In this document: positions 54,625-55,308 of the stretch, piece by piece
Layout: every line of letters starts with the position of its first letter
Numbering within the stretch: the stretch's first letter is position 1
Translations under genes and position numbers: made by a program
Notes under the pieces: model-generated
Database searches by the model: none
Told to the model about the DNA's origin: nothing
Seen by the model: only the letters and a program-made list of their open reading frames with translations
Assembly: GCA_052034935.1 (NCBI GenBank)
Contig: JBPOIB010000005.1
Coordinates: 16,357 to 80,356, forward strand
Length of the DNA stretch: 64,000 nucleotides
Direction: 5' to 3'
DNA from: Candidatus Moraniibacteriota bacterium
GTDB lineage: Bacteria > Patescibacteriota > Minisyncoccia > Moranbacterales > UBA1568

Positions 54625-55308
54625 ATGGACAAAGCACAGCACGAAGCGCTCCTCAAAACGCTCGAGGATGCGATCCAGCTCGAGGAATACAAGAAATCCT
54701 ATGATGGCTATCGGGTCGGACTCATTCCACATATCCTTGGTAGCATTCTTGTGACCTGCGGCAATCTCGTCTACGGCCGCGATCCATCATACGGCAAATT
54801 CAAAGCGGTCGAGGTGATCGCGCGCATCCCGTACCAGTCATGGGAAGTGGCGAGCTACATGCTGCTCACCATGTTCTACTCGAATGAACAGAAAGCGATC
54901 GAGCTTTCCAAGACGTCGCGCTTCGGTCGATCATCACAGGACAATGAGACGATGCACGTCGTCGTGCTATCGCAGCTCGCGAAGAAGTACGGCGAGGATG
55001 GCTTCATCCGGCACACGCTCATTCCGCTGCTCTTCTCCTTCGGCTATGCGGCCGCTTCATTCATCCTCTATCTCTTCAGCCCGAAAAGCTCGCTCCAGCT
55101 CAACTATCTTTTCGAAGATCATGCATTCTCGCAGTATTCCATCTTCGTCGAAAAGCACGCGGAAGAATTGAAGAATAAACCGGTTATGATCGACTTCTTG
55201 GAGTTTTACGGCCGCCACGTGAAGAGCGAGTATGAGCTCTTTGTCACAATCAAGAATGACGAGATCATCCATCGCAACATGTCAGCCCATCGGGCGGATG
55301 AGCTCTAG
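54625..55308 (+). CDS. alternative-oxidase (AOX/PTOX)-like di-iron carboxylate protein
   Basis: Four putative iron-ligand motifs in the order E, ExxH, E, ExxH: VEVIARIPY, NETMHVV (compare NERMHL), LFEDHAF, NDEIIHRN (compare RADEAHHR). 227 aa with two amphipathic/hydrophobic helices. Confidence 0.5.
   Translation: MDKAQHEALLKTLEDAIQLEEYKKSYDGYRVGLIPHILGSILVTCGNLVYGRDPSYGKFKAVEVIARIPYQSWEVASYMLLTMFYSNEQKAIELSKTSRFGRSSQDNETMHVVVLSQLAKKYGEDGFIRHTLIPLLFSFGYAAASFILYLFSPKSSLQLNYLFEDHAFSQYSIFVEKHAEELKNKPVMIDFLEFYGRHVKSEYELFVTIKNDEIIHRNMSAHRADEL

Follow-up and report, generated by a model that had tools for sequence, protein, structure and literature searches.

We examined a 64,000-nucleotide stretch of a Candidatus Moraniibacteriota genome (GenBank assembly GCA_052034935.1, contig JBPOIB010000005.1, positions 16,357 to 80,356 of the forward strand; hereafter the window, with positions counted from its first letter) and, within it, an open reading frame (ORF) on the + strand at 54625–55308, which begins with ATG at 54625, includes its stop codon at 55308 and encodes a protein of 227 aa. 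We are close to certain that this protein truly belongs, although very divergent, to the superfamily of di-iron proteins formed by the alternative oxidases (AOX) and the plastid-type terminal oxidases (PTOX), an assignment that draws on the ORF itself, the Pfam family PF01786, the homologues, an AlphaFold2 model, and trypanosome alternative oxidase (TAO) as top structural match. As to its function, we consider it probable that the protein acts as a non-pumping quinol:O2 oxidoreductase working on host-scavenged quinone, serving as an oxygen scavenger and electron sink. The setting is an unusual one, since the ultra-small Patescibacteria (the candidate phyla radiation, CPR) are generally thought to be without respiratory chains and quinone synthesis.

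A search against Pfam (hmmscan) gave PF01786 (AOX) as the sole significant family, scoring 33.2 bits against a curated gathering threshold of 22.7 (E 5.4e-8), with the match spanning aa 62–222 on profile positions 59–213 of 216. This was the hidden Markov model (HMM) comparison proposed in a preliminary description of the window, which had read the gene from its letters as an AOX-like di-iron protein. The same domain is carried by 117 of the 120 listed homologues, with none on record for P0102 and P0119, and NCBIfam returned no model for the 227-aa protein. A single-sequence phmmer search of all PDB sequences gave only noise and found no AOX, and a profile built from a 24-sequence alignment of the CPR family did not retrieve TAO from the PDB sequences at E<1. 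Because these sequence searches missed AOX, the link to TAO was drawn from Pfam, from profile–profile comparison and from the predicted structure. When the family profile was searched against 1.84 billion representative proteins (hmmsearch), 459 were retrieved at E<=1e-3 and 16 at E<=1e-30, a picture of a tight family with a graded tail. One part of the tail consists of short proteins of ~220–250 aa with DNEQWH, FEDHAEHEY and DERxH motifs, one of which (Paludibacteraceae) is annotated 'alternative oxidase'; the other consists of proteins with an NELHH motif, one of which falls in a 90% cluster with the 'immutans protein' of Nannochloropsis, that is, PTOX.

Profile–profile comparison (hhalign) matched the CPR family to the short bacterial clade with a probability of 100% (E 1.5e-39 over 194 aligned columns), to a PTOX-type set with 99.7% (E 3.7e-26) and to the single PTOX-type sequence clustered with the Nannochloropsis protein with 98.9% (E 1.4e-17), while the PTOX-type set itself matched TAO with 96.9% (E 1.8e-10). 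Compared directly with TAO, whose sequence we checked against PDB 3VV9 (100% identity), the CPR family gave a probability of 9.8% (E 3e-3), with NETMH placed on NERMH and DEIIH on DEAEH. We therefore place the protein in the AOX/PTOX superfamily, nearer to PTOX than to mitochondrial AOX. The sequence signatures of PTOX are shared in part: ARIPY and FEDHA match the ARVPY and ExHA of PTOX, whereas motif 2 is NETMH, with one His, where PTOX has NE(L/M)HH. The features of canonical AOX (LET, NERMHL, LEEEA, RADEA(H)H and an N-terminal dimerisation arm) are not matched, motif 3 being FEDHA and the protein being ~100 residues shorter than TAO. An insertion of ~18 residues before motif 4, between '...YY' and 'LYDVF..DDE.EH', is present in the PTOX-type sequences and gapped in the CPR protein; such an insertion, of ~16–20 residues ahead of the fourth iron-binding motif, is a defining feature of PTOX. 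The preliminary description thus stood as regards a di-iron protein of the AOX/PTOX type, on Pfam, ligands and fold, and needed revision in its detail, which is PTOX-like rather than AOX-like. On sequence comparison the protein is neither a canonical AOX nor a true PTOX, and by profile its nearest relatives are an uncharacterised clade of short bacterial proteins.

The active-site residues were located in an alignment (MAFFT L-INS-i) of TAO with 24 CPR, 17 sister-clade and 20 PTOX-type sequences. The six TAO ligands E123, E162, H165, E213, E266 and H269 share columns with E63, E108, H111, E164, E213 and H216 of the window protein, and all six columns are invariant (24/24 CPR, 17/17 sister-clade and 20/20 PTOX-type). 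The Glu and His residues hence lie at AOX ligand positions, and the four motifs that had been picked out from the letters (E63, NETMH at aa 107–111, FEDH at 163–166 and DEIIH at 212–216) do occur in AOX/PTOX order within the 227 aa. TAO N161, D265, Y220, A126 and A216, which correspond to N107, D212, Y171, A66 and A167, are also invariant; the roles of the catalytic Tyr and of the second-shell Asn and Asp are well established in TAO. Motif 1, AVEVIARIPY (aa 61–70; 54805–54834, + strand), contains the ligand E63, equivalent to TAO E123 and to the LET Glu of PTOX, with K58 five residues upstream of it, and E63, A66, R67, P69 and Y70 are invariant in 24/24 CPR sequences. Motif 2, NETMH (aa 107–111; 54943–54957, +), supplies N107, E108 and H111, the equivalents of TAO N161, E162 and H165; it belongs to a stretch QDNETMH that is invariant in the CPR alignment and aligns with NERMH of TAO and NELHH of PTOX. 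Motif 3, FEDHAFSQY (aa 163–171; 55111–55137, +), holds E164 (TAO E213), the PTOX-type H166, Q170 and Y171 (TAO Y220), with E164, H166, A167, Q170 and Y171 invariant in the CPR sequences. In motif 4, DEIIH (aa 212–216; 55258–55272, +), D212, E213 and H216 correspond to TAO D265, E266 and H269, and together with R217 and N218 they too are invariant in the CPR sequences. At the residues that contact quinol in TAO, R118 is replaced by K58 (a conservative change), L122 by V62, A216 by A167 and T219 by Q170, the last being a clade-specific residue that is invariant in the CPR clade; TAO E215 is replaced by H166, as in PTOX.

An AlphaFold2 model computed from the CPR alignment was all-helical, with a mean predicted local distance difference test score (pLDDT) of 87.6 and a predicted template-modelling score (pTM) of 0.86. 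The model has the predicted AOX arrangement of a four-helix bundle with two additional long helices of the membrane-binding kind, and a Foldseek search of the PDB returned TAO chains as the top 14 matches (probability 1.00, TM 0.49–0.57), followed by a steep fall. Among predicted viral structures the best matches were a 201-aa unnamed viral protein (H8ZJQ8) and a Synechococcus-phage plastoquinol terminal oxidase. Both hydrophobic helices may well bind the membrane. The first, at aa 31–50 (VGLIPHILGSILVTCGNLVY; 54715–54774, +; helix 33–50 in the model), has a Kyte–Doolittle average of 1.73 over the 19 residues of aa 31–49 and is presumably the counterpart of TAO alpha1, which we take to be a membrane-binding helix. 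The second, at aa 127–151 (IRHTLIPLLFSFGYAAASFILYLFS; 55003–55077, +; helix 127–151 in the model), has a Kyte–Doolittle average of 1.87 over aa 132–150, a segment that aligns to TAO 170–196, and we take it to be the counterpart of alpha4, likewise presumed to bind the membrane.

The other membrane-bound di-iron carboxylate proteins are COQ7 and AcsF, and a protein of that kind, namely a di-iron oxygenase (hydroxylase, desaturase or cyclase) acting on a lipophilic substrate such as a scavenged quinone, a lipid or an isoprenoid, is an alternative that we judge quite unlikely. The window protein gave no match to COQ7 (PF03232) even at E<=10, AOX/PTOX is clearly the better match by both sequence and fold, there is no variation at the catalytic Tyr specific to AOX or in the second shell of Asn and Asp, and the genes linked to it in relatives, described below, are dehydrogenases rather than biosynthetic enzymes. 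COQ7 itself was accordingly rejected, on the missing PF03232 match, the better AOX/PTOX match and the invariant AOX Tyr. A soluble ferritin-, rubrerythrin- or Dps-like protein for peroxide detoxification or iron storage seems to us very improbable, and was also rejected: the protein showed neither a match to the HMMs of these families nor a best structural match limited to the four-helix bundle. The peroxide-related role that the preliminary description had offered as a possibility found no support.

The protein is widely distributed in CPR bacteria. A homologue search returned 984 clusters of ~227–240 aa throughout, and in a scan of one genome per GTDB species at least 162 genomes, nearly all Patescibacteria, encode a relative; the carriers are named Moraniibacteriota, Paceibacterota, Kaiserbacteria, Wolfebacteria and Parcubacteria, plus several automatically named bins and a few probable mis-binnings. 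Isolate and record names suggest that groundwater, wastewater, soil and other freshwater samples were the source of many of them. The closest homologues are from Candidatus Moraniibacteriota, at 93% identity in three loci (L004–L006) and 97% over a partial match in a fourth (L014). We also considered whether the gene could be an ordinary AOX of proteobacterial origin, or a PTOX from a cyanobacterium or phage, present through recent horizontal transfer or mis-binning and with its CPR context irrelevant. In one paper a single AOX hit in CPR was attributed to transfer out of Proteobacteria (PMC9540462), and some close homologues bear titles of non-CPR taxa (Undibacterium, Bdellovibrionales). However, the gene has a GC content of 0.52, the same as its neighbours, and therefore shows no sign of recent import; the order of arginyl-tRNA synthetase (ArgRS), histidine-phosphatase, AOX-like and isoleucyl-tRNA synthetase (IleRS) genes is kept in 14 Moraniibacteriota loci; the division into subclades agrees with the way the record titles name the CPR lineages, with Moraniibacteriota on one side and Paceibacterota-type on the other; and identity to PTOX is only ~29–33%, with TAO beyond the reach of the family profile. 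On GC, synteny, subclade pattern and low PTOX identity we rejected recent transfer, which we regard as extremely improbable. The titles themselves deserve a remark: near-identical homologues occur in bins called 'uncultured Bdellovibrionales', 'uncultured Candidatus Saccharibacteria', 'Undibacterium sp.', 'Bacillota' and 'Flavobacteriales' (L004, L006, L008 and others; P0006), and because they share synteny with Moraniibacteriota and Paceibacterota loci, placeholder names or mis-binning seem likelier than genuine presence beyond CPR.

We clustered the ORFs lying within 4 kb of the AOX-like gene in the window and 80 CPR loci. In 28 loci a flavin adenine dinucleotide (FAD)-linked oxidase of ~552 aa adjoins the AOX-like gene on the same strand, and in 27 of these it lies directly upstream, usually with a gap of ~20 nt; in the remaining locus (L050) it lies downstream, and one further locus (L074) has a distant paralogue of the FAD oxidase (33% identity) on the opposite strand. 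The oxidase has the domains PF01565 and PF02913, its best NCBIfam matches are the N-terminal half of the YdiJ D-2-hydroxyglutarate dehydrogenase and GlcD, and the PDB entries that match it best are glycolate oxidase, LctD, mitochondrial D-lactate dehydrogenase and D2HGDH. The linkage is found in 27 of the 33 members of one subclade, among which pairwise identity of the oxidase goes down to 55%. A different subclade of four loci (L017, L018, L020 and L022) has an NAD-dependent D-isomer 2-hydroxyacid dehydrogenase following the AOX-like gene, directly adjacent in L018 and L022. In the same four loci an extracytoplasmic function (ECF) sigma factor and a putative anti-sigma factor (~310 aa, without a Pfam match) lie directly upstream, a placement that suggests stress-responsive control of the oxidase in this subclade, and ApbE flavin transferase, nitroreductase and DUF305 genes are nearby. 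The sister clade is represented by at least 573 metagenomic loci, and its neighbourhoods contained no match to the FAD oxidase. One of its lineages, of ~70% GC (metagenome contigs L127, L129, L130, L137 and L138), has a gene for a type II NADH:quinone oxidoreductase (NDH-2) immediately upstream on the same strand, with best PDB matches to the NDH-2 of Caldalkalibacillus thermarum and Staphylococcus aureus (E 4e-42), and the short AOX-like gene beside it matches PF01786 at 33 bits. These two genes look like a two-gene minimal chain from NADH to O2. Quinone reduction is the dedicated role of NDH-2 and is also known from part of the FAD-linked D-2-hydroxyacid dehydrogenase family. Each of the three kinds of linked gene encodes a dehydrogenase, the pattern to be expected if a quinol oxidase formed the end of a minimal non-pumping chain, and the neighbourhoods of the relatives point to an electron-sink role for the oxidase.

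Putting these results together, we propose that this member of the AOX/PTOX superfamily is a compact di-iron carboxylate oxidase attached monotopically to the membrane, in which four Glu and two His residues on a four-helix bundle would hold the di-iron centre. O2 would be reduced to water at this Glu4His2 centre with the aid of the nearby Tyr171; a lipophilic quinol of the cell membrane would donate the electrons, and no protons would be pumped. The quinone would probably be taken from the host, because Patescibacteria are reported to be without quinone synthesis, an argument already made for the cyo oxidases of other CPR bacteria. The enzyme would then serve as both oxygen scavenger and electron sink, so that a fermenter exposed to O2 could use it to re-oxidise its reduced cofactors or to oxidise D-lactate-type substrates.

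Another way to view the linked genes is that the oxidase needs no quinone at all, its direct electron donor being a flavoprotein partner, such as the FAD-linked D-2-hydroxyacid dehydrogenase, or else another small reductant. The pair would then form a two-protein 'D-lactate oxidase' needing no quinone pool, its partner adjoining in many Paceibacterota-type genomes. The gap of only ~20 nt between the two genes in most linked loci is consistent with this, as are the changes at the TAO quinol- and inhibitor-contact residues T219 and R118 and the report that CPR genomes have no quinone biosynthesis (PMC8407418). Against it, the hydrophobic helices are kept, including the one that aligns to TAO 170–196; the linked enzyme in the sister clade, NDH-2, is dedicated to quinone reduction; and no flavoprotein gene is linked to the oxidase in the subclade of the window. 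Furthermore, we know of no AOX or PTOX family member that accepts electrons from a protein. On balance we think electron transfer without quinone unlikely.

For quinol oxidation itself, the indirect support consists only of linkage, to NDH-2 in the sister clade and to the FAD-linked D-2-hydroxyacid dehydrogenase in CPR relatives, from which the substrate may be suggested. Several observations weigh against the proposed quinol oxidase. The protein has little similarity to any oxidase with known biochemistry (15% identity to TAO, which the family profile misses), and the positions of TAO T219, R118 and E215 are occupied by Gln, Lys and His. The FAD-oxidase linkage belongs essentially to one subclade (27/33, plus L050) and therefore may reflect few independent events, and the NDH-2 linkage was seen in just one high-GC lineage, where most of the NDH-2 sequences are 91–99% identical. 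In the window's own subclade of 16 loci, the FAD oxidase is linked in 0/16, no dehydrogenase is linked and the gene sits between housekeeping genes; within the 1.2 Mb of the window and the 80 CPR loci, neither the window nor its subclade has an NDH-2, FAD-oxidase or NAD-dependent D-lactate dehydrogenase-like gene. The window itself lacks a partner dehydrogenase, and its 64 kb contain no quinone-synthesis gene or quinone-reducing dehydrogenase. A bolder view, which we hold only tentatively and would sooner doubt than accept, is that many Patescibacteria regarded as strict fermenters carry a two-gene O2-consuming module, in which a PTOX-like oxidase and an FAD-linked D-lactate/2-hydroxyacid dehydrogenase oxidise a fermentation product with O2, using quinone from the host membrane or possibly none. 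In that case AOX/PTOX would have a third, bacterial branch in the oxidase clade, with an electron-donor chemistry of its own, and CPR bacteria a widespread and overlooked terminal oxidase.

The immediate surroundings of the gene are ArgRS (52150–53826) and a histidine-phosphatase-family gene (53955–54596; PF00300, E 4.7e-33) upstream and IleRS (55568–58552) downstream; the adjacency to a histidine phosphatase gene that had been noted earlier is thus correct. The phosphatase was nonetheless rejected as a functional partner, its adjacency being kept only in the Moranbacteria subclade, along with ArgRS and IleRS. A consensus scan found a promoter-like GTGAGA-18-TATAAT (54549–54578, +; 10/12 matches) 46 nt before the start codon and within the 3' end of the phosphatase gene, a pattern match that hints only weakly at a promoter, as the scan gave 3 sites against 1.2 expected in shuffles. 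Downstream, a hairpin at 55522–55547 with a T-run just before the start of IleRS was considered as a terminator of the AOX-like gene and set aside, since it is more likely part of a weak T-box leader of ileS, and probably the T-box terminator. The leader match (RF00230; 55356–55530, +) scored 36.8 bits, below the gathering score of 93, with E 7.4e-7 in a 321-nt search, and falls in the 260-nt gap ahead of ileS (55568). T-box control of ileS in a CPR genome may merit attention. In a more distant Moranbacteria genome (L002/L003) the AOX-like gene is placed elsewhere, beside SET and RluA genes and downstream of a copper-resistance cluster.

A Pfam inventory that covered almost every ORF in the window, itself a fraction of the genome, listed a copper-resistance cluster, a type IV pilus ATPase, glycosyltransferases, a GH81 hydrolase, RND, ABC and P-type transporters and translation genes. 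It contained no genes for NADH dehydrogenase, cytochrome oxidase, bc1, ATP synthase or quinone biosynthesis in the 64 kb, bearing out the earlier remark that the window is free of respiratory-chain genes. The copper-resistance cluster (2560–11453) comprises DUF305 proteins, a CsoR-type repressor, a CopA P-type ATPase (7153–9438), an HMA-DsbD_2 membrane protein and two cupredoxins; one of these (10914–11453) contains a CuA-type domain like that of COX2/NosZ, matched by the CoxB model below its cut-off (E 1e-12). The same cluster adjoins the AOX-like gene in L002/L003, where the immediate downstream neighbour is the SET gene. The window has a SET-domain protein of its own (16323–16883; PF00856, E 6.7e-22) and an ankyrin-repeat protein (43560–44186, −), eukaryote-like domains in a CPR genome. 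At 46995–47762 and 47825–48661, an MsrQ/YedZ-like ferric-reductase-type haem membrane protein lies beside a DsbA/thioredoxin-like lipoprotein; the MsrQ model matches below its cut-off (E 6e-15) and no MsrP partner was seen. MsrQ of Escherichia coli is tied to the quinone pool, and the MsrQ-like protein, if quinone-linked, would hint at a membrane electron carrier in this organism. A PRK07233-type flavoprotein (19070–20398; 428 bits, above cut-off), related to HpnE, CrtI and protoporphyrinogen oxidase, is flanked by a GtrA-family membrane protein and two large GT2 glycosyltransferases (region 18615–24774). Plant phytoene desaturase is the classical partner of PTOX; the flavoprotein is 35 kb from the oxidase gene, and no link between them was shown. 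Finally, a transfer-messenger RNA (tmRNA; 50058–50461, −; RF00023, 109 bits), found by Rfam and missed by ARAGORN, lies beside smpB (50504–51163, −).

CPR bacteria have been described as without terminal oxidases apart from sporadic cyo or bd operons. The literature that we searched gave no published description of the CPR AOX/PTOX-like clade beyond one passing mention, the single CPR AOX hit regarded as a transfer from Proteobacteria (PMC9540462), and surveys of CPR oxygen reductases and oxygen-using genes, which cover cyo, bd and other enzymes, list neither AOX nor PTOX. Public annotation pipelines label members of the clade 'alternative oxidase' or 'ubiquinol oxidase'. Within the literature searched, therefore, the gene is named in databases, yet neither studied nor described as a clade. 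The superfamily is known; the gene stands within it for a separate, compact clade that extends across CPR bacteria and has an unusual physiological setting, and together with the large sister clade the ~220–240-aa proteins of this clade make up a substantial bacterial branch outside classical AOX and PTOX. If our proposal is right, at least 162 species-level genomes encode an O2-reducing di-iron enzyme of one subunit, which would provide part of the radiation with a cheap means of removing O2 and disposing of reducing equivalents, and would help to explain the growth and abundance of CPR bacteria in oxic groundwater, soil and wastewater. The proposed host dependence sharpens the question of the quinone's origin, and should the enzyme work without quinone, its electron donor would be of a type new to the AOX/PTOX scaffold.

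Among known systems, TAO of Trypanosoma brucei is far removed in sequence, with 15% identity, an hhalign probability of 9.8% and a family profile blind to it at E<1, and it differs in its long N-terminal arm and its length (329 aa versus 227 aa). The COQ7/Clk-1 demethoxyubiquinone hydroxylase is set apart by PF03232, which the window protein lacks, by a shorter structural match (117 residues) and by having neither the AOX-type Tyr nor the AOX helix arrangement. The cyo ubiquinol oxidase of Saccharibacteria, Doudnabacteria and some Parcubacteria offers a physiological parallel, being a quinol-dependent O2 reductase in CPR bacteria without quinone biosynthesis or other respiratory complexes; soil CPR genomes with cyo operons are reported to have no quinone-biosynthesis genes (PMC8407418), and cyo in CPR bacteria has been read as O2 detoxification or limited aerobic capacity (PMC8407418, PMC9938205, PMC12577380). 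The two have no relation in sequence or mechanism, however: cyo is a haem-copper enzyme of several subunits that translocates protons, whereas the window protein would be a single-subunit, non-haem di-iron, non-pumping one. PTOX (IMMUTANS and its cyanobacterial and cyanophage counterparts) belongs to the same Pfam family, and the six ligands, Tyr, Asn and Asp are all kept, as are ARxPY after the first Glu and the His at ligand+2 in motif 3 (ExHA); cyanophage PTOX (~200 aa) is also among the best viral structural matches of the window protein. The two differ in overall sequence (~29–33% identity), in the ~18-residue insertion before motif 4 that the window protein lacks, in motif 2 (NETMH versus NELHH or NEMHH), in Q170 where PTOX has Thr or Ser, and in the host, here a non-photosynthetic ultra-small bacterium with no known plastoquinone. 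The short bacterial AOX-like clade (for example Paludibacteraceae HQB69433.1, 'DNEQWH...FEDHAEHEY...DERxH', ~220–250 aa) differs in having EQWH rather than ETMH and E or S rather than Q before the Tyr, and its likewise uncharacterised members come from non-CPR bacteria, including the ~70% GC lineages in which an NDH-2 gene precedes. It is nonetheless the nearest by profile, matching the window protein in size, in the Lys at the TAO R118 position, in the ExHA motif and in its similarly weak Pfam AOX scores of 24–38 bits.
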